Positions 2,582 through 46,021 of a DNA stretch of 49,248 nucleotides are shown piece by piece. Numbering within the stretch: position 1 is the stretch's first letter; every line of letters begins with the position of its first letter. Made by a program: the position numbers and the translations under genes. The DNA is from Minisyncoccota bacterium (GTDB lineage: Bacteria; Patescibacteriota; Minisyncoccia; Phycocordibacterales; UBA9973). The stretch spans positions 1 through 49,248 of the forward strand of contig JBAYVZ010000006.1 in NCBI GenBank assembly GCA_041674285.1. Reading direction: 5' to 3'. The notes below the pieces were generated by a model. The model was not told the DNA's origin, did no database searches, and saw only the letters and a program-made list of their open reading frames with translations.

Positions 2582-3115
2582 ATGAAAAAGATACTTATAT
2601 TTTTGTCCGCAATAGTTTTACTAGTGATAGTCGCTGGTATTTATAAATTTAATTTTACCGAGGATGATATCATAATCCCGGTAGTAGAAGATAAAATAGA
2701 GAATACTCAGTCAGTAGAAAAAGAAAAATTACCACCCTTGGTAGTTAAAGATTTTGAAGGGGAGGCTGATCCAGATAGGATGACACTAGGGATGACAAAG
2801 TGGAACTGGATCAAGACTGTATATAGTGATGATAAAATAGTTACACCACTAAAAGAAAAAAAATTCACATTAACATTTAAAAATGACAATACATTTTCTG
2901 CGACGACAGACTGTAATGGTGTAGGTGGGGAATATAAAACAAAAGAAAAAAATATCACCTTTGACAAGATGATGTCTACTCTCATGTATTGCGAGGGTTC
3001 ACAAGAATCTGAATTTGCAAAGATGCTGACCGAGACACAGAGCTATATGTTCACATCAAAAGGCGAGCTGATACTGATGCTCAAATATGATAGTGGGTCT
3101 GTAATCTTCAGATAA
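2582..3115 (+). CDS. META-domain (HslJ-like) exported protein
   Basis: N-terminal TM/signal segment. DCNGVGGEYKTKEKNITFDKMMSTLMYCEG fits the META pattern CNxxxGxY...T.M.C. Confidence 0.8.
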   Translation: MKKILIFLSAIVLLVIVAGIYKFNFTEDDIIIPVVEDKIENTQSVEKEKLPPLVVKDFEGEADPDRMTLGMTKWNWIKTVYSDDKIVTPLKEKKFTLTFKNDNTFSATTDCNGVGGEYKTKEKNITFDKMMSTLMYCEGSQESEFAKMLTETQSYMFTSKGELILMLKYDSGSVIFR

Positions 3116-5883: not shown

Positions 5884-7902
5884 TTATTTTAATGGTGCAA
5901 TATTTTTTACATATCTGCTGTGTACCCATCCAGATACGCCCTGATCAAAGTTCACCTTGTGCCATAGGACTTTGTTTAGATACATATTTTCTATTACGGT
6001 GCCTGTGGCTCCGTATCCTATGCGTGCATATAGTTTACCTGCTGGAGTCTTGCGGATGTTTAGTAGTGGAGCTGTTGTAGAGATTCTGTTTGTTAGTATG
6101 TATCCAGAATACATACTTGTTTGAAGATTAGTGTTTGTCTGGGTATTTGTATTTTGATAATACGATGTTGGGTTTGTATATGCAGGGCTAGTATATGATG
6201 GAGTAGGTATCTGATTGTAATTCTGTATATAAGTAGGATTATTTTGTGGAGCTGTATATGTAGGATTGATAGGGGGCAAATTATAATTTGGATTTACATA
6301 TGTTGGATTGTTGTTTGAATTAGAATTAGATCCTGATGAATTTGTCTCTACGAAGAATGAAGGGGAAGACGTCACATTCACGAGAGTATTGTTTATTGGA
6401 GTCTCCTTTCTTGTACTACTATAATCCCACTCGCTACGATTGCCGACAAAATTAAAAGGAAAAGTATAATTTGAAGACACACTCTCACTCAGATCAGTAG
6501 TTGTTTTAGCCCAGAGTACATAAGTGAATTTACCGTCTTCTCCTTCAAATGCTACCCCCCGCATAGTACTAGGTAGATTTAATTGATTTGTCTTTGCCTG
6601 ATTGTATTTCTTGCCGTAGAGTAATTCGCTGATAGTTTTCTGTGCTTTGTATTGCTCTGTCTTTGGGGCATTGGATACTGTCGTGTTAGAAGAGCTGATA
6701 TCTCCATACAGGCCCATCTTGTTGAAACTGTCTGTGCTCGTACTATTTTGACCTAGGCCGTATTTGTATGTCTGCATTATTCCATTTGCCTGACCTAATA
6801 CGTGCATCTTTATAAAATAATTATTTGATTCTGTTGATCCACCCCAGTCTGTCCCCACAGTAGCTTGGGGGATGTCTGTCTCTGTGACTAGCCACTGCTT
6901 CCTCGGATAAGTAGATCCTTCATATCCGTATTTTTCCAGTATTGTATTATGTTCTGTCTGATACTTTAGATGTGCATCCACTGCTGCATCCGAGTGTCTA
7001 CTGTAAACAAAGCCACCCTTCGCATTATCCCATTTGTGTAGGTCATACATCGGATAGGTGTGGAAAGATAGTACATCAAAATAAGCACCAGCTTTTAGTG
7101 GATACTCTGCGGTGACACTACCGTCATTCGGATTGTCTGTATTTCGCATTAGTGCATCTAGGAATGATGGGTATCCTATACCTCCTGTGGCTACATAGTC
7201 TCCAGGTTCGAGCGTCTTGATCACGTCATATGCTACTCGTAGCTCACGTATGTAGTATTGGATAGGGGCCTTTAGATTTGTCAGATCTTCTGGTTCAGGA
7301 TTAACATTCCACCAACTCTTTGAATCAGCACTCTTGTCTTGCCATCCATGTGAGCTGTATGTAAAGTCAGGCTCATTTACTATCTCCCAAAATTTTACAT
7401 ATTGTCCATAATTTTTTACTGTCTTGTATACGTATGATGCATAAGTGTTTGCAGGGTTGATCTGTGTCTTGCCCGCATCTAGCCATACTGGCTCGTACAG
7501 ACCTTTAAAAGTTTTTGCACGTTCGGATGCACCGGGGAATATTTTAGTTTCGCGGTTGTCAGTGCCAGATGTATTTGGTTCACCTAGGAATGCAGTCAGG
7601 TCTGTGAGCCCTAGATTTTTGTAATATTCAAAAGCTGTTTTTCTTGCATCTATTCCGTATCCTGTGATGAGCCAGTCTGGTAATGATGCTCGGATAGTAC
7701 GTGCTCCTGCATTGTATGCGAGCTCTGCGACATTTTGATCTGTGAGATGGGACCCATAATATCCCATATTTGTACCGTAGGCGTATTTGCCGTTATATAG
7801 ATTAAAAGAACCCATATCGTTTGCAGTCAGAGCAGATGCATACCCGGGGGTAGACATTACAATAAGTGTGAGTAATAAGATATTTTTTTTAACTGTATTC
7901 AT
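5884..7902 (-). CDS. secreted clan-A (GH5-like) glycoside hydrolase with Asn/Pro/Thr/Tyr-rich linker and C-terminal SH3b domain
   Basis: Signal peptide present. WEIVNEPD is a NEP acid/base motif and WLVTETD is a candidate nucleophile Glu. The C-terminus (...LLNIRKTPAGKLYARIGYGATGTVIE...WHKV...GWVHSRYV) looks like bacterial SH3. Confidence 0.7.
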   Translation of the reverse strand: MNTVKKNILLLTLIVMSTPGYASALTANDMGSFNLYNGKYAYGTNMGYYGSHLTDQNVAELAYNAGARTIRASLPDWLITGYGIDARKTAFEYYKNLGLTDLTAFLGEPNTSGTDNRETKIFPGASERAKTFKGLYEPVWLDAGKTQINPANTYASYVYKTVKNYGQYVKFWEIVNEPDFTYSSHGWQDKSADSKSWWNVNPEPEDLTNLKAPIQYYIRELRVAYDVIKTLEPGDYVATGGIGYPSFLDALMRNTDNPNDGSVTAEYPLKAGAYFDVLSFHTYPMYDLHKWDNAKGGFVYSRHSDAAVDAHLKYQTEHNTILEKYGYEGSTYPRKQWLVTETDIPQATVGTDWGGSTESNNYFIKMHVLGQANGIMQTYKYGLGQNSTSTDSFNKMGLYGDISSSNTTVSNAPKTEQYKAQKTISELLYGKKYNQAKTNQLNLPSTMRGVAFEGEDGKFTYVLWAKTTTDLSESVSSNYTFPFNFVGNRSEWDYSSTRKETPINNTLVNVTSSPSFFVETNSSGSNSNSNNNPTYVNPNYNLPPINPTYTAPQNNPTYIQNYNQIPTPSYTSPAYTNPTSYYQNTNTQTNTNLQTSMYSGYILTNRISTTAPLLNIRKTPAGKLYARIGYGATGTVIENMYLNKVLWHKVNFDQGVSGWVHSRYVKNIAPLK
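6105..6345 (-). repeat. low-complexity coding repeat (NPTY-like units)
   Basis: Translated SNSNSNNNPTYVNPNYNLPPINPTYTAPQNNPTYIQNYNQIPTPSYTSPAYTNPTSYYQNTNTQTNTN; coordinates estimated from residue positions. Confidence 0.6.
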
Positions 7903-25488: not shown

Positions 25489-26733
25489 TTATTTTTTTGA
25501 TATCTGAATCAATCTTTTATATTTAATAATGCGTTCGTATTTCGTCGGAGCTCCGGCTTTTAATCCATAACATCCAAATGCATATGCGAGGTCAGCTATA
25601 AAGTCATCATCCGTCTCGCCACTCCTGTGACTGACTATGATGTCAATATTGTTCTCACGGGCTAGCTTCATGGTATCTAGCGTCTCGGTTAGTGTGCCTA
25701 TCTGGTTTGGCTTTATTATTATTGTATTGATACTATCTTTTTGAATTGCTTTTTCCAAGAGCTTTACATTGGTAACAGTCAGATCATCGCCGACTACCTT
25801 TATATTCATATCATTTTTTAATTTTTGAAAATCTGCAAAGGCTTCTTCGTGGAATGGATCTTCGATGGATAAAATGTTGAATTCTTTTATGAGGTCTTTG
25901 TATATATTCATCAATTCATCTCTTGAGATTTTCTTGCCATCTATGTCGTACTTACTCTCATCTTTTCCGAATATTGTAAATTCTGGAGTACAGAATGATG
26001 ACGCTGCTACGTCCATAGCAAGGCGCACCTCACACCCTAGGGCATTTTCATCTATCGCACGACGGAGGTATTCTAGCGGTTTTTTTATATCTGTTATTTT
26101 TGGAGCAAAACCTCCTTCATCTCCCATGGGTACTTCATTTATATCAAGGTCACGACATAGCATATCCTCGATAGATTCTTGAACTTTGATACCTATCTTT
26201 ACTGCTTGTTTTACATCATTTGTAAAAGGAACTATGTGGTACTCCTGGAAAGCTAGATTATTGTTGGCATGCTTGCCTCCATTTATCAGGTTCATATATA
26301 GCAGTGGAACCATACGAGATGGCTTGATATCTGCGAGTGTGCGGAGATATTTATATAAATCCATATTTTTTGCTTCAGCTGTGGCTTTGGCTACTGCTAT
26401 AGATACACCTATGAGTGCATTGCCACCAAGATTTTTCTTTTGTTTTGTGTCATCAAGTTCCCGCATTATATTGTCGATGAGTTTTTGGTTTGATGCCTCT
26501 TTACCTAGTAGGGCGGGAGCTATTTTCTTGTTTATATTTTCAATTACCTTTTTTACACCTTTACCGTCTTTGTCACGGAGCTCGTATGCCTCGTGGGATC
26601 CGGTACTGGCACCAGAGGGTACAGAAAATGAACCAGTAGATTTTCCGATCTCTACTGTTACACAGATGGTGGGATTGCCTCGTGAATCCTTTATCTCTGT
26701 AGCAAAAATTTTAGTAATTTTACTTTGGCTCAT
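25489..26733 (-). CDS. eno: enolase
   Basis: [18 protein letters not shown] and the typical length of 414 aa. Its stop lies 1 nt before the pyk ATG. Confidence 0.95.
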
Positions 26734-26850
26734 CTCGTTAGAGATAGATAATGTTTACATTATCGTATCTTATTAATTTTAATATCAAAAAATTATTTTT
26801 ATAAATATAATAAGCTATAACACATTTTTAACATACACATCTCTAACGGG
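26734..26850 (-). mobile_element. ORF-less inverted-repeat element (MITE-like), copy 3
   Basis: The minus strand reads CCCGTTAGAG...[AT-rich]...CTCTAACGAG and abuts the eno ATG. Its termini and internal segment AATTTTTTGATATTAAAAT are shared with the copy at 44196..44311. Confidence 0.55.
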
Positions 26851-28123
26851 ACTGATTTGTATTTTTAAATAATATCATGATATCTGACACATTTGCATTT
26901 GTGGGTCCAGTCATAATCATATCTCCAATCTTTTCAAATGCACTGTATGCATCAAAATTCTCTATGTAATTTTTTATATCAATCTCTTTGTTTAAAACTT
27001 TTTCTTTTGTATGTACATCTATTATAGCACCTGCGCCAGCACTATTATCCATACCATCAGATGCGAGAGGGATGAATACTGAGTGCTCGCCAATTTTTTC
27101 TATCGCTTTTAGTCCCATGTACATATTTCTGCCACCAGAGCCACCTTTTTTTGTGACTACTAGTTTAGGCTCACCGGCTGCTATGATCACTGTGCCGTCT
27201 TTTTCATTTTCCATTATTTTCTCTAGTGCAGAGTCTACTTCATCGTATAATTCATTTGATACAACTATGGATGGATATCCTAATTCTTTAGCTTTTTGCT
27301 CCATTGCTTCTGTGGCGGTCTTGTTTGATACTAGGACAAAATTATTTACTTTTTCAAAATATTTATCTTCCTTGGGTGTCTCATTTAGATTAAATTCACC
27401 AAGATTGTAGTGGGCTATAATCTTTTCGGCATCATTTATAGTAGTCGTATCTTTGTATGTGGGGCCAGATGCAACATCTTCAAATTTATCTCCTGGTACA
27501 TCAGAAAATACCAATCCGATGACTGTAGCAGGGTAGGCGATCTTGGCCAGGCCTCCACCCTTGAGCATTGATATGTGTTTGCGTACTGTATTTATCTCGC
27601 TGATAGTATTGCCTGTTTTTAGGAATGTATTGTATAGAGTTTCCCCTTGGACACACTCGCTCTCTGGGTAGCATAATAATGCTGATCCACCACCAGATAC
27701 TATAGCTATGACCAGCTCATCTTCTTTTGCTCCGTCTGCTATTTCGTATATCTCTTTGCCGGGTCCCACATTGGCATGTGATGGTCGTGGGTGCGTGCCA
27801 GCGAAAGTACGTATAACAGGACAAATCTTTTGAGATAGTCCTATTACTGCACCTTCGGAAATCTTGTCCTTTAGTATTTCCTCTAATGCGTATGCGGCCT
27901 CACAAGAACATTTTCCAAAACCTACAACTTTTATTTTTGAAAATTTTGATAGATCAAAAGTTTGCCCCTGGATCGACAATATCTCTCCATCAAGCTGGAT
28001 AGATCTCTTTATCACCATTTCTGTGTTGATAGCATCGAGACCTGCCTCGGCAATAGCCAGAGCAACTTTGCGATTTTCTGTGGTTGCTATATCTTCATAA
28101 TTTTTAATCCAGTGTTTGCGCAT
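26843..28123 (-). CDS. glycerate 2-kinase (DUF4147/MOFRL type)
   Basis: VVGFGKCSCEAAYALEE, VSGGGSALL and C-terminal ASDGMDNSAGAGAI. The last two codons and the TAG stop lie inside the repeat element. Confidence 0.85.
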   Translation of the reverse strand: MRKHWIKNYEDIATTENRKVALAIAEAGLDAINTEMVIKRSIQLDGEILSIQGQTFDLSKFSKIKVVGFGKCSCEAAYALEEILKDKISEGAVIGLSQKICPVIRTFAGTHPRPSHANVGPGKEIYEIADGAKEDELVIAIVSGGGSALLCYPESECVQGETLYNTFLKTGNTISEINTVRKHISMLKGGGLAKIAYPATVIGLVFSDVPGDKFEDVASGPTYKDTTTINDAEKIIAHYNLGEFNLNETPKEDKYFEKVNNFVLVSNKTATEAMEQKAKELGYPSIVVSNELYDEVDSALEKIMENEKDGTVIIAAGEPKLVVTKKGGSGGRNMYMGLKAIEKIGEHSVFIPLASDGMDNSAGAGAIIDVHTKEKVLNKEIDIKNYIENFDAYSAFEKIGDMIMTGPTNANVSDIMILFKNTNQSR

Positions 28124-29135: not shown

Positions 29136-29193
29136 CTTTATATTATATCAGAAAATATATATAGCAGGGTAGCAGTATTCGTGATAAATATCT

Positions 29194-29221
29194 TTGACTT
29201 TAATGGTTTTTGTGCTATATT
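29194..29221 (+). promoter_or_regulatory. sigma70-type promoter with extended -10
   Basis: TTGACT (29194-29199), 16-nt spacer, TGcTATATT (29213-29221). Confidence 0.55.
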
Positions 29222-29238
29222 AAAAAAAAATTCCATTT

Positions 29239-29261
29239 TAAAAACCAAAACCCAAAAACCC
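29239..29261 (+). promoter_or_regulatory. A/C-rich leader motif TAAAAACCAAAACCCAAAAACCC
   Basis: Lies 6 nt upstream of ATG 29268; same motif class as 8031, 21519(-) and 41937. Confidence 0.35.
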
Positions 29262-29267
29262 ATTAAG

Positions 29268-29699
29268 ATGAAGAGAACTGTATTAGAAAAATTGACAGCT
29301 AATTCTATTGTTTATGTTGAATATGCTGAACGCGGAAGAGCTCCTGGTGCTGTATTTGTTAATCAGACTAAATCTGATGATTCAGAGGAGAGCACCTTTT
29401 TATTTTTAGGTAGGTCTGTTGACTACTTGATTAACCATTGTAATGTTGTCGACATAGAAGAAACAAAAGATTGTAATTCCTATTTTTTTGCTGAGAAGAA
29501 TTTTTCTCTTGATTCTATCAAAATCAAAACATTTCGCCCTCTTACCCCTCCTGAAATTAAAAAAATCTGCGAGCGTGTAAAAGACTTCAAGAATGGTTCA
29601 AAAAATGCCCAAAAGATACACAAATTTTTTTCGTCGGCATTCTTTAGTGCTAGCATTGGAAAGACGGTTCAATACCATCAACCCAGCGCTTCTTCGTAA
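29268..29699 (+). CDS. hypothetical protein
   Basis: 143 aa counted from the first ATG downstream of the promoter and leader; no motif recognised. Confidence 0.45.
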   Translation: MKRTVLEKLTANSIVYVEYAERGRAPGAVFVNQTKSDDSEESTFLFLGRSVDYLINHCNVVDIEETKDCNSYFFAEKNFSLDSIKIKTFRPLTPPEIKKICERVKDFKNGSKNAQKIHKFFSSAFFSASIGKTVQYHQPSASS

Positions 29700-29719
29700 T
29701 TTTGGTTTACCAAACATGT

Positions 29720-29746
29720 AGAGCTATCTTCGGATGGCTCTTTTTG
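29720..29746 (+). terminator. intrinsic terminator
   Basis: agagctatc-ttcg-gatggctct stem followed by T5. Confidence 0.7.
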
Positions 29747-29764
29747 TATATATACTCGAATCTT

Positions 29765-29773
29765 TGGTATAAT
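29765..29773 (+). promoter_or_regulatory. extended -10 box (TGgTATAAT) 6 nt upstream of ATG 29780
   Basis: TGGTATAAT-aaaaac-ATG. Confidence 0.5.
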
Positions 29774-29779
29774 AAAAAC

Positions 29780-30823
29780 ATGAAATTATTTACATCATCA
29801 AAAAACAAGAAAGTTCGTGTCGCTATTAATGGTTTTGGTCGTATCGGTCGTGCATTCTTAAAGATTGCTTGGGATAGGGAGGATATAGAGATAGTCGCTG
29901 TGAATGATCTAGGTTCTCTTGAATCTCTAGCATATCTACTCCGTCACGATACTGTATATAGAAACTGGAATCACGATGTGAAGATTGTAGGCACAGATAT
30001 GGTTATCGATGGAAAGACTGTAAAGTTTGTTTCTGAGAAGGATACTACAAAATTACCATGGAAAGATTTAAATATTGATGTAGTTGTAGAATCTACAGGA
30101 CTATTCACTGCATTCGACAAAGCAAAATTCCACATCGACTGTGGAGCTCGCAAGGTCGTGATCTCTGCTCCCTCAAAGGGGTCTGATGGAACTGTGCCAG
30201 GCGAGACAATACTCTTGGGTGTGAATGAAGATAAATTCGGTACATGCGAAATCACATCAAATGCATCTTGTACTACAAATGCATCAAGTCCACTTATCGC
30301 CATCCTTCATAAGGAGCTAGGCATTGAAAAAGCAATCCTAAATACTGTGCATGGGTACACAGCATCTCAGTCACTAGTAGATGGTCCAAGTAAAAAGGAT
30401 CTCCGTGAGGGTCGTGCTGCTGCTCAGAATATCGTACCTTCATCTACAGGTGCTGCGATCGCAGTCACAGAAGCATTCCCAGATCTAAAGGGGTTATTCG
30501 ATGGTATATCTATCCGCGTGCCAGTACCAGCAGGATCAATAGTAGATGTGACATTCATATCAAAGAAGGAGACTACTGCTGAAGAAGTGAATGCGATACT
30601 GACAAAGGCTGCAAACGATCCACACTGGAGTAAAATCTTTGCAGTCACAGATGAACCATTAGTATCATCTGATATCCTAGGTAATTCACATGCATCTATA
30701 GCGGACCTAGCTATGACTCGTGTAGTAGGTGGCAATCTAGTAAAAGTAATGGGCTGGTATGACAATGAGTATGGATACACATCTACACTAGTAGATCACG
30801 TAGTAAAAACTGGAAGTAAGTAA
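29780..30823 (+). CDS. gap: glyceraldehyde-3-phosphate dehydrogenase, type I
   Basis: INGFGRIGR, SNASCTTN (catalytic Cys) and WYDNEYGY. Start moved to ATG 29780. Confidence 0.95.
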   Translation: MKLFTSSKNKKVRVAINGFGRIGRAFLKIAWDREDIEIVAVNDLGSLESLAYLLRHDTVYRNWNHDVKIVGTDMVIDGKTVKFVSEKDTTKLPWKDLNIDVVVESTGLFTAFDKAKFHIDCGARKVVISAPSKGSDGTVPGETILLGVNEDKFGTCEITSNASCTTNASSPLIAILHKELGIEKAILNTVHGYTASQSLVDGPSKKDLREGRAAAQNIVPSSTGAAIAVTEAFPDLKGLFDGISIRVPVPAGSIVDVTFISKKETTAEEVNAILTKAANDPHWSKIFAVTDEPLVSSDILGNSHASIADLAMTRVVGGNLVKVMGWYDNEYGYTSTLVDHVVKTGSK

Positions 30824-30835
30824 TATGTTTAAAAT

Positions 30836-30866
30836 AAAAGCCCTATATATAGGGCTTTTATTTTTG
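30836..30866 (+). terminator. intrinsic terminator
   Basis: agccctata/tatagggct stem followed by T-runs. Confidence 0.75.
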
Positions 30867-30873
30867 CTAAAAA

Positions 30874-30882
30874 TGCTATAAT
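30874..30882 (+). promoter_or_regulatory. extended -10 box (TGcTATAAT) 6 nt upstream of ATG 30889
   Basis: TGCTATAAT-gggggt-ATGAAT. This ATGAAT is the left duplicate of the rpiB start, so the box is the presumed original rpiB promoter. Confidence 0.45.
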
Positions 30883-30894
30883 GGGGGTATGAAT

Positions 30895-31168
30895 CCCGTT
30901 AGAGATTATTTATGTTTTATACTTACGTAATTAAAAGTAAAAAAGATGGTAAACTTTACACAGGAAGTACAAATGACCTACGGAAGCGCCTTATTCAGCA
31001 CAACACTGGCAAATCTACCCATACGAAAGGACGCGGCCCATTTGTCATTATTTATTACGAAGCATGTTTAGATGAGCACAAAGCTCGGTCGAGAGAATTA
31101 TTTTTAAAAACGGGAATGGGCAAGCGTTATCTCAAGAACAGACTTGGCGCTTCCTATCTCTAAACGGG
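30895..31168 (+). mobile_element. inverted-repeat-bounded element carrying a GIY-YIG gene, copy 1
   Basis: CCCGTTAGAG (30895-30904) and CTCTAAACGGG (31158-31168) are imperfect inverted repeats. They are flanked by the direct repeat ATGAA at 30889-30893 and 31169-31173. Confidence 0.6.
30912..31163 (+). CDS. GIY-YIG nuclease superfamily protein (YhbQ/UPF0213-like, 83 aa)
   Basis: FYTYVIKSKKDGKLYTGSTNDLRKRLIQHN...YYE carries the GIY, YIG, Arg and Glu positions. The stop TAA lies inside the right inverted repeat. Confidence 0.85.
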   Translation: MFYTYVIKSKKDGKLYTGSTNDLRKRLIQHNTGKSTHTKGRGPFVIIYYEACLDEHKARSRELFLKTGMGKRYLKNRLGASYL

Positions 31169-31627
31169 ATGAAAATCTATATAGGTACAGACCATGCGGG
31201 ATTGGAATTAAAAGAAAAAATAAAAATATATTTAGAAGAAAAAGGCCATGAAGTGTATGATAAAGGGGCTTTTGGTTATAACGGGGAAGATGATTATCCT
31301 GATTTTATAATTCCCGTTGCAGAAGAGGTAGCGAAGGATCCGGATTGTATGGGTATAATCCTAGGTGGTTCCGGACAAGGAGAAGCTATGTGTTCAAATC
31401 GTATCCATGGGGTACGAGCTTGCGCATATTACGGTAGCTCATTTGAGATTCCAAAGCTCGCTCGAGCACACAATAATGCAAACATCTTGTCGATAGGAGC
31501 ACGATTTGTGAGTGAATTTGAAGCTAAAGACGTCCTCGATATATTCCTTGGTACACCTTTTTCTGGAGATGAGCGACATGTACGTCGAATTAGTAAAATA
31601 GATAACCTACTAGAAGCTAGAAACTAG
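31169..31627 (+). CDS. rpiB: ribose-5-phosphate isomerase B
   Basis: MKIYIGTDHAGLELKEKI..., GGSGQGEAMCSNR, 152 aa. Confidence 0.9.
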   Translation: MKIYIGTDHAGLELKEKIKIYLEEKGHEVYDKGAFGYNGEDDYPDFIIPVAEEVAKDPDCMGIILGGSGQGEAMCSNRIHGVRACAYYGSSFEIPKLARAHNNANILSIGARFVSEFEAKDVLDIFLGTPFSGDERHVRRISKIDNLLEARN

Positions 31628-31645
31628 CCACTAGAACCTAATCAT

Positions 31646-32347
31646 ATGGAAATAGTACCCGCAATATTAGTCAGAAGTTTTCGAGAGCTTCAAGATAGAC
31701 TCGCATTTGTGTCTAGACTTTCAAACACAGTTCATGTGGATTTTTGTGATGGTCGCTTTGTGACAGCGCAGACTTGGCCATATACTTACGGAGGATTCGA
31801 GGAAGACGTACATGCGCTGCATATACTAGATGAAGAGGAGGGTATGCCGTACTGGGATACTATGGATTTCGAATTTGATCTGATGGTAAAAAATCCACAC
31901 CTGGTGATGGATACTTTTATAAAATTAGGTGCAAAGAAATTGATTTTTCATATTGAATCTGTCTCAGATACTTCTGAATTCTTGGAATTCCTAGAAGGTA
32001 TAGATATGTACACTCGTGAGAATACAGAGCTGGGTATAGCTATAAATACTACGACAGATGTAGAAGTGTTGAAGCCATTCTTAATTCATGTAGATTTTAT
32101 TCAATGTATGGGCATAGCTCATATTGGCCGACAAGGCGAGGCTTTTGACGAAAGAGTATTTGAGCAAATTAAAAAAATAAGAGCTATGGATCCGCAAATG
32201 ATGATCGCAGTAGATGGTAGTGTGAATATGGCCACTGCTCCGATGCTAGTAGACCTAGGTGTCCGCAAGCTCGTAGTAGGATCTGCGATACTCGAAGATT
32301 CAGATCCTGTGAGTGTGATAGAAGATATGCGTGGCTTAGTAGAATAA
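31646..32347 (+). CDS. rpe: ribulose-phosphate 3-epimerase-like protein (divergent)
   Basis: IVPAIL..., HVDFCDGRFV, FHIE, AVDGSVN and VVGSAI follow the Rpe barrel order but are divergent. Pentose-phosphate neighbours support the call. Confidence 0.6.
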   Translation: MEIVPAILVRSFRELQDRLAFVSRLSNTVHVDFCDGRFVTAQTWPYTYGGFEEDVHALHILDEEEGMPYWDTMDFEFDLMVKNPHLVMDTFIKLGAKKLIFHIESVSDTSEFLEFLEGIDMYTRENTELGIAINTTTDVEVLKPFLIHVDFIQCMGIAHIGRQGEAFDERVFEQIKKIRAMDPQMMIAVDGSVNMATAPMLVDLGVRKLVVGSAILEDSDPVSVIEDMRGLVE

Positions 32348-32366
32348 ATATGTTAAAATATATTTA

Positions 32367-33233
32367 ATGAATCTTACTGACGAAAAAATAAAAGATCTTT
32401 CTCTTCGCGCGGAGAGAATCCGCGAGAGTATCATCGAGATGCTAGTTGAAGCGGGATCTGGACACACTGCAGGACCTCTGGGTATGGCAGATGTTTTTAC
32501 TACGCTTTATTTTCATTCATTACGCCATGATCCAAAGAATCCAGAATGGAAAGAGCGCGACAGAGTAGTCCTATCCAATGGTCATATCTGTCCGATACTA
32601 TATGCCACTATGGCGCATTCAGGTTATTTCCCTATAGAAGAATTAAAGACTTTGAGAAAATTTGGATCTCGACTACAGGGTCATCCACATCGTGAGTATT
32701 TGCCATTTTTAGATACTAGTTCTGGTCCATTAGGAGAGGGACTAGGTCAAGCTGTAGGTATGGCATTAGCTGATCGTATAGATTTTGGAGACAAGAGTGA
32801 TAGATTCATATACTGCTTTTTAGGAGATGGGGAATTAAACGAGGGCTCAAATTGGGAGGCTATCATGCTAGCCGGTAAAGAGCGTCTCCGTAATCTGATA
32901 GTGATAGTAGATAGGAATAATATCCAGATAGATGGATACACAGAGGACATCATGCCATTGGATAATCTGATAAATAAATGGCAATCATTCAACTGGCATG
33001 TAGAAGAGATAGATGGGCACAATTTTGAAAATATCAGCAATGCTATAGACATAGCAAAAGCAGTATACGAGAGGCCATCTGTCATTATCGCCCGCACCAT
33101 CCCAGGACGTGGGGTAAAAGAATTCGAGCGTGATTATCGCTGGCACGGCAAGCCACCTACAAAAGAAGAGGGAAGAATCGCATTACAAGAACTCCGCACC
33201 CTGGGTGGTAAAATAAAAGGCGAGCATCAATAA
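32367..33233 (+). CDS. tkt: transketolase, N-terminal (ThDP-binding) subunit
   Basis: GSGHTAGPLGMADV, GDGELNEGSNWEA. Confidence 0.9.
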   Translation: MNLTDEKIKDLSLRAERIRESIIEMLVEAGSGHTAGPLGMADVFTTLYFHSLRHDPKNPEWKERDRVVLSNGHICPILYATMAHSGYFPIEELKTLRKFGSRLQGHPHREYLPFLDTSSGPLGEGLGQAVGMALADRIDFGDKSDRFIYCFLGDGELNEGSNWEAIMLAGKERLRNLIVIVDRNNIQIDGYTEDIMPLDNLINKWQSFNWHVEEIDGHNFENISNAIDIAKAVYERPSVIIARTIPGRGVKEFERDYRWHGKPPTKEEGRIALQELRTLGGKIKGEHQ

Positions 33234-33239
33234 TTTTTT

Positions 33240-34250
33240 ATGCTAAATCCACAATTACATTTAAATACAAATTTGTTTGATCCAAATGTAGAACAATTAC
33301 CAACTCGTAAGGGTTTTGGCGAGGGGCTACGTGAGGCCGGTATACGCAATGACAATGTTGTGGCTCTTTGTGCTGATCTGACTGAATCTACTCAGATGAA
33401 TCTATTCAAAGAAAAATTTGAAAATCGTTTTTTTGAGATGGGTATAGCAGAACAGAATATGGCAGTGGTAGCATCAGGTATGGCTGCAATGGGAAAAATC
33501 CCATATATGTCTTCTTATGCTATGTTCTCCCCGGGGCGCAACTGGGAGCAGATCCGTACTACTATCGCATACAATAATCAAAAGGTTGTCATCGTAGGAT
33601 CTCATGCTGGTGTGTCTGTAGGGCCGGACGGTGGTACTCATCAGGCGATAGAGGATATCGCTCTGATGCGCGTGATACCAAATATGACTGTGGTTTATCC
33701 AGCGGATTCTGTAGAAGCAAAGAAGGCGACTCTGGCTGCAATGTACAACAAGACTCCGATATATATCCGTCTTGCTCGTGAAAAGAGTCCGATAATCACT
33801 ACACCCGAGACTCCCTTTGAAATAGGAAAAGCTCAATTAATGTTTATACCCGAGGTGGGCCTCGCCCAGGTAGGTATCCTCGCCACAGGGCCACTACTAG
33901 CACGTGCATTATTTGCAGCAAAGGAATTAGAGAAGAGGGGTGTGAGAGTAAAAGTATTGAGTCTGACTACTATAAAGCCACTAGATACAAATGCAATACT
34001 TGCTCTTGCTCAAGAAGCCAAGGCAATAGTCACAGTAGAGGAGCATCAGATAGCAGGGGGTATGGGTTCGGCTGTAGCAGAATACCTAGCCAAGGTTTAT
34101 CCAGTGCATATGGAATTCGTCGGAGTAGATGATGCCTTTGGTCAATCGGGAACTCAGGACGAGCTCATCGCTCACTACAATATGGATACTCCAAATATAA
34201 TCAAAGCATGCGAAAAGGTGATAGATAGAAAGAGTAAGATATATCAATAG
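33240..34250 (+). CDS. tkt: transketolase, C-terminal (pyrimidine-binding) subunit
   Basis: FEMGIAEQNM, GPDGGTHQAIEDIALMR. Confidence 0.9.
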   Translation: MLNPQLHLNTNLFDPNVEQLPTRKGFGEGLREAGIRNDNVVALCADLTESTQMNLFKEKFENRFFEMGIAEQNMAVVASGMAAMGKIPYMSSYAMFSPGRNWEQIRTTIAYNNQKVVIVGSHAGVSVGPDGGTHQAIEDIALMRVIPNMTVVYPADSVEAKKATLAAMYNKTPIYIRLAREKSPIITTPETPFEIGKAQLMFIPEVGLAQVGILATGPLLARALFAAKELEKRGVRVKVLSLTTIKPLDTNAILALAQEAKAIVTVEEHQIAGGMGSAVAEYLAKVYPVHMEFVGVDDAFGQSGTQDELIAHYNMDTPNIIKACEKVIDRKSKIYQ

Positions 34251-44190: not shown

Positions 44191-44195
44191 TGAAT

Positions 44196-44311
44196 CCCGT
44201 TAGAAGCCACGGTCACAATGAAATTTTTTGTGATATTAAAATGATAAATCAAAATTATAAAATAATATTTAGTAAGGGCGGTGTTTTGACCGTGACCTGC
44301 TTCTAAACGGG
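44196..44311 (+). mobile_element. ORF-less inverted-repeat element (MITE-like), copy 2
   Basis: CCCGTTAGAAG (44196-44206) and CTTCTAAACGGG (44300-44311) are inverted repeats, extended by gccacggtcac/gaccgtg. They are flanked by the direct repeat ATGAAT at 44190-44195 and 44312-44317. Confidence 0.6.
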
Positions 44312-46021
44312 ATGAATACTGCGTCTTTTAAAACACGCATTAAAATAGTGTCTGGTTTTATTTTTCTGTTTGCCTGCATACTTGTCGGCAAGCTTTTTTT
44401 AGTTCAGATTGTTCATCAAAATGAGTACTCCGAAAAAGCTGATAGGCAGTATTCTACTCCATCTGGCAATGTTTTTAATCGTGGGACTATATTTTTTACT
44501 AAAAAAGACGGCAATCTAGTGGCTGCGGGAGCTATGATGTCTGGATTCAAGATTGCTATCAAGCCCAAGGACATAAAAGATCCTGAAGATTTATATAAAA
44601 AATTGGATCCGTACATCACCATGGATCACGATACCTTCATCGCAAAAGCGACAAAAAAGAATGACCCATATGAAGAGGTAGCTACTAGGCTTCCAAAAGA
44701 GACCGTCGATGAGATAGAAAAATTGAGCATACCTGAAGTTTCTGTTTTTAAAGAAAAATGGCGTTTTTATCCTGGTGGAGAGCTGGCTTCTCAAACTCTC
44801 GGATTTATCGCATACAAAGGTGATGAATTGACTGGGCAGTACGGCCTAGAGAGGTACTACAACAAGACACTATCGAAACCAAAAGATCAATCATATGTAA
44901 ATTTCTTTGCAGAAGTTTTTTCTGATATAAAAGATACTTTTACAGGCGAGGAGACTGGCGATGTGATCACTACTATAGAGCCTGGGGTAGAACAGACGCT
45001 AGAATCCGAGATGAGAAAAACTCTAGAAACTTGGAGCGGAGATCAAGTAGGTGGCATAATCATGAATCCAAATAATGGAGAGATATACGCCATAATGGGA
45101 GCTCCAGATTTTAATCTCAATGAATTTGGTAAAGTTGCGAGTCCCTCTGTGTATAGAAATCCACTGGTTGAAAACGTATACGAATTTGGATCTGTGATCA
45201 AGCCATTGGTCATGGCTGCTGCTATAGACAAGGGAGTAGTCACTCCGGAGACTACATATACAGATACTGGTAGTCTGATTATAGAGAAAAGACAAATATT
45301 TAACTTCGATAAAAAAGCTCGTGGCAAGAATACAACGATGCAAAGAGTACTAGATGAATCTCTCAACACGGGTATGATTTTTGTGGAAAGACAGATGGGC
45401 CATGATAGCTTTCGATCATATATGAAAAGTTATGGTATAGGAGAAAAGACTGGTATCGATCTGCCGAATGAGACAAGTGGCCTGATTAAGAACCTAGAGA
45501 GTCCACGTGATATCGAGTATGCGACTGCCTCTTTTGGGCAGGGTATCGCCGTGACCCCCATAGAAGCAGTGCGTTCATTTGCTGTATTGGCGAATGGTGG
45601 TAATCTCGTCGTGCCGCATCTAGTAAAGCAGATACGATACGAAAATGGACTATCTAAGAATATAGAATACGAGCCGACACGTACGGGGATACTAAAAAAA
45701 GAATCTACGGATACTATCACTCGTATGCTCGTCCATGTATTTGAGTCATATGGTAGTGGTTCTTATAAAATACCTAGATATAGTATCGCCACAAAGACTG
45801 GAACTGCGCAAGTAGCCAAAGATTCAGGAGGGGGGTATTATGAGGACCAGCATATGCACTCATTCTTTGGATATTTCCCAGCATATGAGCCTAAATTTGT
45901 TGTTTTCTTGTTTATACGCAATCCAAAGGGGGTAAATTTTGCTTCACAGACATTGATACCACCTTTTGTTAATATCACAAAATTCTTGCTCAATTATTAT
46001 GATGTAGCTCCTGATAGATAG
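44312..46021 (+). CDS. ftsI: penicillin-binding protein (class B transpeptidase, FtsI/PBP2-like)
   Basis: N-terminal TM segment, SVIKP (SxxK), SLN (SxN) and KTGTA (KTG). Confidence 0.9.
   Translation: MNTASFKTRIKIVSGFIFLFACILVGKLFLVQIVHQNEYSEKADRQYSTPSGNVFNRGTIFFTKKDGNLVAAGAMMSGFKIAIKPKDIKDPEDLYKKLDPYITMDHDTFIAKATKKNDPYEEVATRLPKETVDEIEKLSIPEVSVFKEKWRFYPGGELASQTLGFIAYKGDELTGQYGLERYYNKTLSKPKDQSYVNFFAEVFSDIKDTFTGEETGDVITTIEPGVEQTLESEMRKTLETWSGDQVGGIIMNPNNGEIYAIMGAPDFNLNEFGKVASPSVYRNPLVENVYEFGSVIKPLVMAAAIDKGVVTPETTYTDTGSLIIEKRQIFNFDKKARGKNTTMQRVLDESLNTGMIFVERQMGHDSFRSYMKSYGIGEKTGIDLPNETSGLIKNLESPRDIEYATASFGQGIAVTPIEAVRSFAVLANGGNLVVPHLVKQIRYENGLSKNIEYEPTRTGILKKESTDTITRMLVHVFESYGSGSYKIPRYSIATKTGTAQVAKDSGGGYYEDQHMHSFFGYFPAYEPKFVVFLFIRNPKGVNFASQTLIPPFVNITKFLLNYYDVAPDR

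Follow-up and report, generated by a model that had tools for sequence, protein, structure and literature searches.

Contig JBAYVZ010000006.1 of a Minisyncoccota bacterium (Patescibacteriota; assembly GCA_041674285.1), whose complete stretch of 49,248 nt analyzed in this work is referred to as the window, raises the question of how a small gene for a GIY-YIG nuclease came to lie between the promoter of the sugar-metabolism gene rpiB and the start codon from which rpiB is now read. The gene is enclosed by terminal inverted repeats (TIRs), outside of which there is a direct repeat (ATGAAT at 30889-30894 and ATGAAA at 31169-31174), and the preliminary description of this locus, made from the sequence alone, had read the arrangement as an insertion into the beginning of rpiB. 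Its coordinates of the inverted and direct repeats, of the promoter and of the open reading frame (ORF) were all exact when the sequence was re-read. Comparison of the window with loci of other genomes (designated here by L-numbers) leaves hardly any doubt that the segment at rpiB is a mobile insertion, and makes it probable that it represents a phylum-wide family of tiny transposable elements, in whose movement the nuclease itself has a role.

As an alternative, the segment might belong permanently to rpiB as a leader or regulatory module passed on vertically, or its repeats might have arisen by chance. In the window alone, a 10-mer of the TIR has 4 matches against 1.2 expected, and 2 of 100 shuffled sequences also reach 4; as this count is only marginally above expectation, the case rests on comparison with other genomes. 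Among 80 rpiB loci from other metagenomes, returned by a scan in which RpiB was used, 77 do not carry the element. In L082, whose flanks share 95% nucleotide identity with the window on both sides and whose RpiB is 97% identical, the site reads TGCTATAAT-AAGAGT-ATGAAAATCTAT without interruption (i.e., TGCTATAAT-N6-ATGAAAATC, or ...TTTTTGCTAAAAATGCTATAATAAGAGTATGAAAATCTATATAGG... in a longer reading), and no element stands between the promoter and rpiB. In the blastn alignment, window positions 29810-30893 correspond to L082 1422-2505 and positions 31169-33700 to L082 2501-5032. Both pieces share L082 2501-2505 (ATGAA), two ATGAA of the window being aligned to one, and this single ATGAA at the empty site indicates that the insertion duplicated (A)TGAA. 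The element is present in L001 (99.9% identical flanks) and L002 (98.5%), a distribution most simply explained by a single insertion that followed the divergence from the L082 lineage.

An ORF-less relative of the element (MITE, for miniature inverted-repeat transposable element) abuts the start codon of ftsI in the window, and for this copy three empty sites were found (L163, L164, and L165). They read ..GTAAGATA/ATGAATACTGCG (...GTCGCTGTAAGATA/ATGAATACTGCG... in a longer reading), where the slash, here and below, marks the junction with the element; their blastn pieces overlap on ATGAAT, and the flanks of L164 and L165 are 97% identical to the window around ftsI. The uninterrupted sites that the preliminary description had proposed to look for in relatives were thus found at both rpiB and ftsI. 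For the second ORF-less copy, located at eno, no empty site was found, since the search returned solely the window's own strain, and an exact-sequence look-up of the 108-aa gene upstream of ftsI found nothing. The empty sites in 95-97% identical relatives and the preponderance of unoccupied rpiB loci refute a fixed leader or a chance repeat, as does the presence of the same ends before dozens of unrelated genes, and we regard the probability of such an origin as negligible. Neither a match to Rfam at the gathering threshold nor a tRNA was found anywhere in the window, so the element is not a known RNA, intron, or tRNA-linked element. The coordinates of all features are collected in Table 1.

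Table 1. Features of the rpiB copy and of the two ORF-less copies, in positions of the window.
Feature	Position	Strand	Basis or details
rpiB host promoter, extended -10 box TGCTATAAT (30874-30882) and 6-nt spacer GGGGGT	30874..30888	+	sequence; same TGCTATAAT-N6-ATG at empty L082
Left target copy: original rpiB ATG (30889-30891) and left TGAA duplication (30890-30893)	30889..30893	+	blastn pieces versus L082
Mobile element, 276 bp, terminal T30894 to terminal A31169	30894..31169	+	missing in L082; present in L001 and L002
Left TIR TCCCGTTAGAGAT	30894..30906	+	alignment pairing
Sole ORF, 83-aa GIY-YIG nuclease of the UPF0213/YhbQ/Slx1 lineage	30912..31163	+	PF01541, E=5e-17
Internal helix, 5' arm GGAAGCGCC	30982..30990	+	9 nt, 100% complementary to the 3' arm
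Internal helix, 3' arm GGCGCTTCC, contiguous with the right TIR	31146..31154	+	alignment, RNAalifold
Right TIR ATCTCTAAACGGGA, containing the GIY-YIG stop codon TAA (31161-31163)	31156..31169	+	alignment pairing
Right TGAA duplication copy, within the rebuilt rpiB start ATGAAA	31170..31173	+	blastn pieces
rpiB, intact host gene	31169..31627	+	PF02502, E=2.4e-40, profile positions 1-138 of 138
MITE at the ftsI start, type A, 118 bp including terminal T..A (inner 44196-44311)	44195..44312	+	arms CCCGTTAGAAGCCACGGTCAC and GACCGTGACCTGCTTCTAAACGGG; flanks ATGAA/T ... A/TGAAT
ORF-less derivative at the eno start, 119 bp (inner 26734-26850)	26733..26851	-	repeat TCTCGTTAGAGAT and ATCTCTAACGGGA, 13 nt, 92%

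Filled and empty rpiB sites also differ in the spacer at 30883-30888, which is GGGGGT at the occupied site (window, L001, L002) and AAGAGT at empty L082 (2495-2500), i.e., differs at 3 of 6 nt at an overall divergence of 5%. The left flank GGGGGTACGAAT of an unrelated occupied site, before a class I tRNA synthetase gene (L040, about 2968-2980), resembles the window spacer. Possible sources of the difference are co-conversion of a few flank bases, an older right-end remnant (..CGGG/ATG), or adaptation after the insertion. Farther upstream, window 29233-29809 (versus L082 734-1421) has no blastn match to L082, and both of its flanks match at 95-99%. This segment, spanning most of a 172-aa ORF (29181-29699) without a Pfam match between the genes of a 2-hydroxyacid dehydrogenase and GAPDH, is replaced or hypervariable.

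Family members, their ends and their target

At E<1e-5, 1188 homologues of the GIY-YIG protein were found; the 120 that match it best are 77-95% identical, and the source names among these 120 are all Patescibacteria (Paceibacterota, Nomurabacteria, Woesebacteria, or "Patescibacteria group"). An exhaustive profile-free search of 1.84 billion representatives gave 7100 clusters at 50% identity, of which 831 reach E<=1e-10, and when each GTDB species is represented by one genome, a relative is encoded in 383 stretches. From these stretches, 80 loci (L002-L081) were taken, in nearly all of which the ORF is framed as ATGNN(T)/CCCGTTAGAGAT...TCCTATCTCTAACGGG/ATGNN. Together with the window, they hold 89 distinct TIR-bounded copies from about 80 Patescibacteria genomes, 69 with and 20 without the GIY-YIG ORF, so the further copies that a genome scan had been proposed to reveal do exist. 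Three of them lie in the window, where a relaxed search found no others. A full-length element measures 273-280 bp (273-285 bp across the 69 copies with the ORF), carries TIRs of 12-13 bp, (T/C)CCCGTTAGAGAT, and encodes a single protein of 83-87 aa. The family is large, phylum-wide, and mainly confined to the ultra-small Patescibacteria, also known as the Candidate Phyla Radiation (CPR). No relatives of the protein were found in viral contigs, and hence there is no sign of a phage vector.

Several copies per genome occur at unrelated loci (e.g., in JAGOUR01, LBZL01, and DAONFW01). Copies at different sites of one genome are on average 89.9% identical (n=10) and hence closer to each other than copies that occupy one and the same gene in separate genomes (83.8%, n=28) or unrelated pairs (82.1%), which speaks for spread within genomes. 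Between the window copy and that of L002, eight substitutions crowd into 16 nt, as if this patch had been converted from another copy. The host genes are diverse housekeeping genes, including those of Asp/Glu racemase, RuvX, RuvC, RecR, SHMT, CTP synthase, peptidase M50, a PrgI-family protein, and class I aminoacyl-tRNA synthetase, and some were occupied repeatedly across lineages (rpiB five times, PrgI-family six times, peptidase M50 five times). The rpiB start (ATGAAAAT...) was occupied independently in five lineages (window, L027, L136, L159, and L072) by different family members: the Nomurabacteria genome of L027 has a full element, whose nearest relatives are other Nomurabacteria copies, L136 and L159 have MITEs of 118 and 115 bp, and L072 has a bare hairpin of 48 bp.

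Full-length copies were also observed in GC-rich contigs binned as Planctomycetes, Syntrophales, and Desulfobacteraceae (L061 and L068, which are identical, and L076); the L076 copy has GAAAC on both flanks and no ATG at the site. Either these contigs are mis-binned, or the element was transferred outside Patescibacteria. A published paper, the only related mention found in the literature, names a GIY-YIG domain protein among the genes predicted as transferred from Patescibacteria to other bacteria (PMC12455944). In L051 (about 6100-6250) and L078 (about 2985-3000), related GIY-YIG genes follow ATGAAT/CCCGTAGTAGATT and ATGAT/CCCGTACTAAATT, respectively; they are probably sister subfamilies with other inverted repeats and the same placement at start codons. 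Distant GIY-YIG paralogues, 43-54% identical and without these TIRs, are present at L006 3723-3962 (-), L007 2221-2460 and 3672-3908, and L012 906-1160 (-). One of them adjoins a tRNA gene and the two in L007 flank a TIR-bounded copy. Together with a gene in L072 they show that the protein family also has non-mobile members or other contexts in the same genomes.

The collection of copies allowed the ends of the element to be placed exactly. The preliminary description had bounded a 274-bp segment by imperfect inverted repeats; the repeats are real, but they are one base pair longer (T30894...A31169), which gives 276 bp. The pair just outside CCCG..CGGG is complementary, being T..A in 77 of the 89 copies and C..G in nine, and with the C..G variants the downstream gene starts with GTG (ATGAAC/.../GTGAAA). 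The terminal pair therefore belongs to the element and supplies the A or G of the rebuilt start codon. Boundaries set exactly at CCCG..CGGG, with a 5-6-bp duplication of ATGAA(T), were rejected on the same ground, as left-terminal C variants pair with a right G. In the rpiB copy, CCCGTTAGAG at 30895-30904 is complementary to CTCTAAACGGG at 31158-31168 save one extra A, by which this right TIR differs from most family members, and the present rpiB ATG consists of the terminal A of the element and the TG of the duplicated target. Of the earlier proposal of an insertion 5-6 nt into rpiB that duplicated ATGAA, the insertion and the duplication are thus retained, with TGAA as the duplicated sequence.

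The right flank begins with ATG in 70 and with GTG in four of the 89 copies, so that a start codon is abutted in 74. Where both flanks show ATG, the following two bases agree on the two sides in 34 of 39 cases, compared with a mean of 11.8 and a maximum of 21 in 5000 permutations. As this match is far above permutation, the flanking repeat, previously described as resembling a target duplication, is a true site-specific duplication and not element sequence. An exact duplication of 4 bp is present in 37 copies (9.1 in permuted pairs), one of 3 bp in 13, of 5 bp in six, and of 2 bp in five, TGAA (17) and TGGA (11) being the commonest. The reconstructed target (n=56) is A(48) / T(54) G(50) V(T never) A(49) W, an empty target being, e.g., ..A/TGAAAATC... 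As a control, 179 unoccupied leaderless-type gene starts of the same loci were used. The fifth target base is A in 88% (49/56) of targets versus 39% of unoccupied starts (p=7e-11), and the fourth is T in 0% versus 14% (p=0.001). These biases indicate that the element reads a short DNA motif (A/TGVA) that many start codons happen to carry, and the targeting of first codons proposed earlier holds as a description of where most copies lie, the target being this motif and not simply the start codon. A few non-ATG insertions are found at TAA, TTAA, or CTAA, a few bases upstream of an ATG (L025, L035, L050, L057, and L074). Tandem copies in L060 and L077 share one ATGAA, as they should if the target is restored on either side by every insertion.

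The two ORF-less relatives noticed earlier at the ATGs of ftsI and eno have the same ends as the rpiB copy, and both abut the ATG. ORF-less copies are 48-120 bp long overall, the 20 counted among the 89 being 57-120 bp. Those of type B (L054, L057, L136, and in part the eno copy) still begin with the initial 14 nt and end with the final 17 nt of the full element and are therefore internal-deletion derivatives. Type A (the ftsI copy, L012, L032, L159, L065, L073, L078, and others) has arms of 22-24 nt, whose changes are matched on both sides (CGCGGTC/GACCGCG, CACGGTC/GACCGTG, and CGCGATC/GATCGCG, the slash here separating the arms). MITEs fold as single strands far better than shuffled sequences (z from -3.8 to -4.9; -19.9 kcal/mol and z = -4.4 at ftsI, z = -4.4 at eno). 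There are 20 MITEs in 457 kb of contigs selected by the GIY-YIG gene versus two in 308 kb of contigs selected by rpiB (p=0.0014).

In L072 (2234-2620), a GIY-YIG gene without recognisable TIRs lies about 70 nt upstream of the 48-bp hairpin, which reads CCCGTTAGAGGCCGCGGTCG-TTTA-ACCGCGACCTGCCTCTAACGGG between ATGAAT and ATGAAA at the rpiB start and is the shortest family member seen. In the window, the gene upstream of eno, of the DUF4147/MOFRL (glycerate-kinase-like) type, has ...N-Q-S-R-stop as its present end, its last codons and TAG lying in the left TIR of the eno MITE (26843-26851, -). The insertion appears to have replaced the original C-terminal end of this gene, which probably overlapped the eno start. 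Sigma-70-like hexamer pairs facing the downstream gene were observed in both MITEs of the window, at 26759-26788 (-) and 44236-44263 (+); that of the eno copy, TTGATA-18-GATAAT, ends about 25 nt before the eno ATG. As promoter-like sites in the eno and ftsI MITEs are not enriched over shuffled AT-rich sequence, it is a lead only that MITEs may bring a promoter to the downstream gene.

The encoded nuclease and the fold of the element

The assignment of the ORF product to YhbQ/UPF0213-type GIY-YIG proteins, and the profile search proposed along with it, were borne out. Pfam PF01541 matches with 62.4 bits against a curated cut-off of 22.6 (E=5e-17, profile positions 1-70 of 78), and the nearest proteins found by phmmer are UPF0213 members BH0048 (1zg2; E=2e-7) and EF2693 (1ywl; E=0.0017). 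An AlphaFold (AF2) model built from 36 homologues has a pLDDT of 93.6, and in a Foldseek search with this model BH0048 was followed by Slx1 (7cq2, 7cq3, and 4xlg) and At-HIGLE (7wme), all ahead of I-TevI. The NCBIfam model of group I intron endonucleases (TIGR01453) scores 27 bits, below its cut-off of 56, and the PADLOC and PHROGs libraries gave weak matches of homing-endonuclease type and no defence-system assignment. Among the 36 homologues 43 columns are invariant, including Y3, Y5, Y16-T17-G18, R24, R26, H30, N31, E50, E62, and N76; by analogy with other GIY-YIG enzymes, the invariant Tyr, Arg, and Glu positions are the putative catalytic and metal-binding residues. The 83 aa are catalytic domain throughout, with no DNA-binding domain attached. 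The ratio of nonsynonymous to synonymous substitutions (dN/dS) has a median of 0.10 at dS of about 0.8 (ten 83-codon copies), from which it follows that the protein is maintained by strong purifying selection and was not merely copied recently.

An alignment of the 69 full-length copies revealed a conserved fold. The TIR helix (columns 1-12 with 269-280) has 98.7% of cells paired and three pairs with compensatory double changes, and a second helix (columns 94-102, GGAAGCGCC, with 259-267, GGCGCTTCC) is 99% paired, G:C being replaced by A:U in 18 sequences and C:G by U:A in 18. Across both helices six pairs change on both sides, shuffled and slid controls being far lower, and RNAalifold recovered both helices unaided. 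The two protein subfamilies translate the 3' arm of the second helix in different frames, which places its conservation at the nucleic-acid level. The last 22 nt are predicted to be fully paired, with the left TIR and the internal segment, in a three-way structure that would juxtapose both TGAA copies. Slx1 cuts branched DNA, i.e., flaps, stem-loops, and junctions. The three-way fold is branched DNA of the kind used as a substrate by Slx1, and this is the main reason for favouring the encoded nuclease as the mobility enzyme.

According to the explanation that we favour, the GIY-YIG protein would be the element's own mobility nuclease: it would recognise or cleave the ends in their folded or cruciform state and open the target by staggered cleavage, and host polymerase and ligase would complete the insertion. 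The entry itself, at 5'-A/TGVA-3' with a duplication of 3-5 bp and the host ORF rebuilt intact downstream, is seen in the copies, whereas the driving role of the nuclease is inferred. The narrower claim, that the nuclease is the only element-encoded mobility enzyme, acts on folded ends and targets start codons, with the host promoter borrowed and the ribosome passed on to the host gene, that the family is a new class of prokaryotic transposon, and that hairpins as short as 48 bp use the same enzyme, we consider evenly balanced between true and false. At about 276 bp, the element would be, if that reading holds, the smallest protein-coding mobile element known to us.

The nuclease gene could instead be cargo, serving repair, addiction, or defence, in a non-autonomous MITE that is moved in trans by a conventional transposase, e.g., of the DDE type. 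TIRs together with short target duplications typify DDE transposition, no GIY-YIG nuclease is known to join DNA, and paralogues without TIRs exist in the same genomes (L006, L007, L012, and L072). In about 840 kb of loci, however, no other protein gene was found between TIR pairs 450-4000 bp apart. (A few long TIR pairs proved to be chance half-sites around a radical-SAM-like ORF in L076 or around rpiB/rpe in L072.) Moreover, throughout the phylum the TIRs and the protein are conserved jointly, nearly all of the 69 full-length copies have an intact ORF, and type B MITEs derive from the GIY-YIG element, in the usual relation of a MITE to its autonomous parent. An origin of this kind is therefore considered unlikely.

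Homing would assign the nuclease a different task, namely cutting empty start-codon sites, into which the element would be copied by break repair through very short homologies (the -10 box and ATGVA), without cut-and-paste. GIY-YIG is a classic homing-endonuclease fold, which the weak profile matches recall, and the repeated occupancy of the same genes, the clustered 8-nt conversion patch between the window and L002 copies, and the altered spacer at the occupied site, with its likeness to the L040 flank, would suit such copying. Classical homing, however, makes neither TIRs nor target duplications and needs long homologous flanks, whereas the insertion sites here are non-homologous genes. Recognition sites of 5 bp would number in the thousands in each genome, the protein has none of the DNA-binding domains of I-TevI type, and derivatives reduced to a 48-bp hairpin still spread. 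Homing thus appears very unlikely as an explanation of the family.

Expression at gene starts

It should be stressed that 57 full-length copies meet the start codon at their right end, with the nuclease ORF co-directional with the host gene, while a start codon at the left end is found at most in L080, where a possible GTG-initiated ORF leaves that end. The left flanks often read TANNNT-N6-ATG, and at rpiB the promoter layout before the left ATG is of the leaderless type, the original start codon following directly after the spacer. Of the 47 ORFs in the window with 120 codons or more, 19 show TANNNT 5-8 nt ahead of their first ATG, versus 8% of internal ATGs, which points to widespread leaderless transcription. 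At such starts (e.g., 14641, 15568, 20617, 21614, 29135 (-), and 29780) the box is often TATAAT, usually at 6 nt, and many of them are ATGAAA, i.e., unoccupied potential targets.

In the subfamily with 83 or 84 aa, the ORF is closed by the TAA of the right TIR, with 4-5 nt remaining to the ATG of the host gene; at rpiB the distance from this TAA (31161-31163) to the ATG at 31169 is 5 nt, as had been noted before. In the 87-codon subfamily (L054-L081, e.g., L054 3001-3261, L064, L068, and L074), the ORF crosses the right TIR in another frame and its stop sits in the duplicated target, as an ATGA overlap with the host start or as TAA or TAG, so that the target sequence completes the element's own gene. 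The element would have no promoter of its own and would be transcribed from that of the host, often a leaderless one, and the host gene would be translated by termination-reinitiation after the stop of the nuclease ORF; judged from the sequence, leaderless transcription and such coupling are plausible at rpiB. In gene-dense genomes only insertions at start codons would survive selection, antisense and intragenic ones being removed. Translational coupling through MITEs as a general rule was rejected, since their short ORF upstream mostly terminates 20-85 nt ahead of the start codon of the host gene. In the ftsI copy and in L012, and not in most MITEs, a short ORF extends from the left ATG as far as the TAA of the right TIR.

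Several points weigh against a transposon that is moved by its own nuclease and read from the host gene start. An exact duplication is lacking in 28 of the 89 copies, often by one mismatch (as at eno, with ATCAG on the left and ATGAG on the right), and the duplication length of 2-5 bp is looser than that of most transposases. The protein of 83 aa has no separate DNA-binding domain with which to read a 12-bp repeat, and GIY-YIG enzymes are hydrolytic, none being known to us for strand transfer. Much of the covariation separates the two subfamilies and may thus reflect few independent events, the enrichment of MITEs near GIY-YIG copies could be a lineage effect, and the coupling idea fails for most MITEs. 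Neither an excision product, nor a circle junction, nor active transposition was observed.

Comparison with known systems

In the literature on GIY-YIG/UPF0213 proteins, the CPR, and MITEs or TIRs we found no prior description of such an element, and the family is apparently undescribed so far. If the proposed explanation is true, the few enzyme types known to move DNA transposons would be extended by a hydrolytic GIY-YIG nuclease from the Slx1 lineage, and the known size limit of a self-encoded mobile element would fall below 300 bp. The design of the element also exemplifies a strategy for selfish elements in genomes with almost no intergenic space, i.e., to land on a start codon, rebuild it, and use the promoter and ribosomes of the host. 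Hundreds of "GIY-YIG nuclease family protein" annotations in Patescibacteria would be transposon genes, and gene starts beside the elements are at risk of being mis-called. The elements could mark strain-level variation and horizontal transfer, and the conserved ends, with so small a protein, might be developed into a genetic tool for organisms very hard to manipulate. The tolerance of leaderless genes to a 276-nt insertion after the 5'-terminal AUG and the role of UPF0213/YhbQ proteins become testable questions.

The family shares with TIR transposable elements the conserved TIRs, a duplication that varies with the site, empty sites, and several copies per genome, and departs from them in having no recognised transposase (DDE, DEDD, HUH, serine, tyrosine, or Cas1), its only ORF being GIY-YIG. 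It is most readily set beside bacterial MITEs and their parent insertion sequences (e.g., Correia of Neisseria, ERIC, and RUP), which likewise have short TIRs, a short duplication, and many copies beside genes, are co-transcribed with a neighbour gene, fold into hairpins, and originate by internal deletion of a coding element. In the present case, however, the parent is only about 276 bp long and encodes an 83-aa GIY-YIG protein instead of a DDE, HUH, serine, or tyrosine transposase, and the insertion occurs at A/TGVA, with the element donating the first base of the start codon.

Genes of GIY-YIG homing endonucleases (I-TevI and the Seg proteins of T4) are also selfish, with a GIY-YIG protein as the sole product, presence/absence polymorphism, and recurrent occupancy of sites. 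Their enzymes differ in having 200-300 aa with linker and DNA-binding domains, recognise sites of tens of bp, and depend on homologous break repair, without TIRs or duplications; here, TIRs and duplications are present and the insertions lie in many non-homologous genes. The closest sequence and fold are those of the UPF0213/YhbQ/Slx1 lineage, and the cutting of branched DNA by Slx1 fits the three-way fold, although Slx1 has an extra zinc-finger domain and needs Slx4. To our knowledge, members of this lineage are single-copy cellular genes that have no flanking TIRs and are not mobile.

Very small size, ends folded as single-stranded hairpins, a short target motif, and hairpin-only derivatives are known from IS200/IS605 and REP/RAYT (REPIN) systems. 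These depend on an HUH tyrosine transposase, their inverted repeats are subterminal and not terminal, and the target is not duplicated, whereas no HUH domain was found in a Pfam scan of the window's element. Finally, the only established case known to us in which a GIY-YIG enzyme cuts the target for a transposable element is that of Penelope-like retroelements. They resemble the family described here in these GIY-YIG target cuts and in their short duplications of variable length, and differ from it in being eukaryotic and in relying on a reverse transcriptase, for which the element at rpiB carries no gene.

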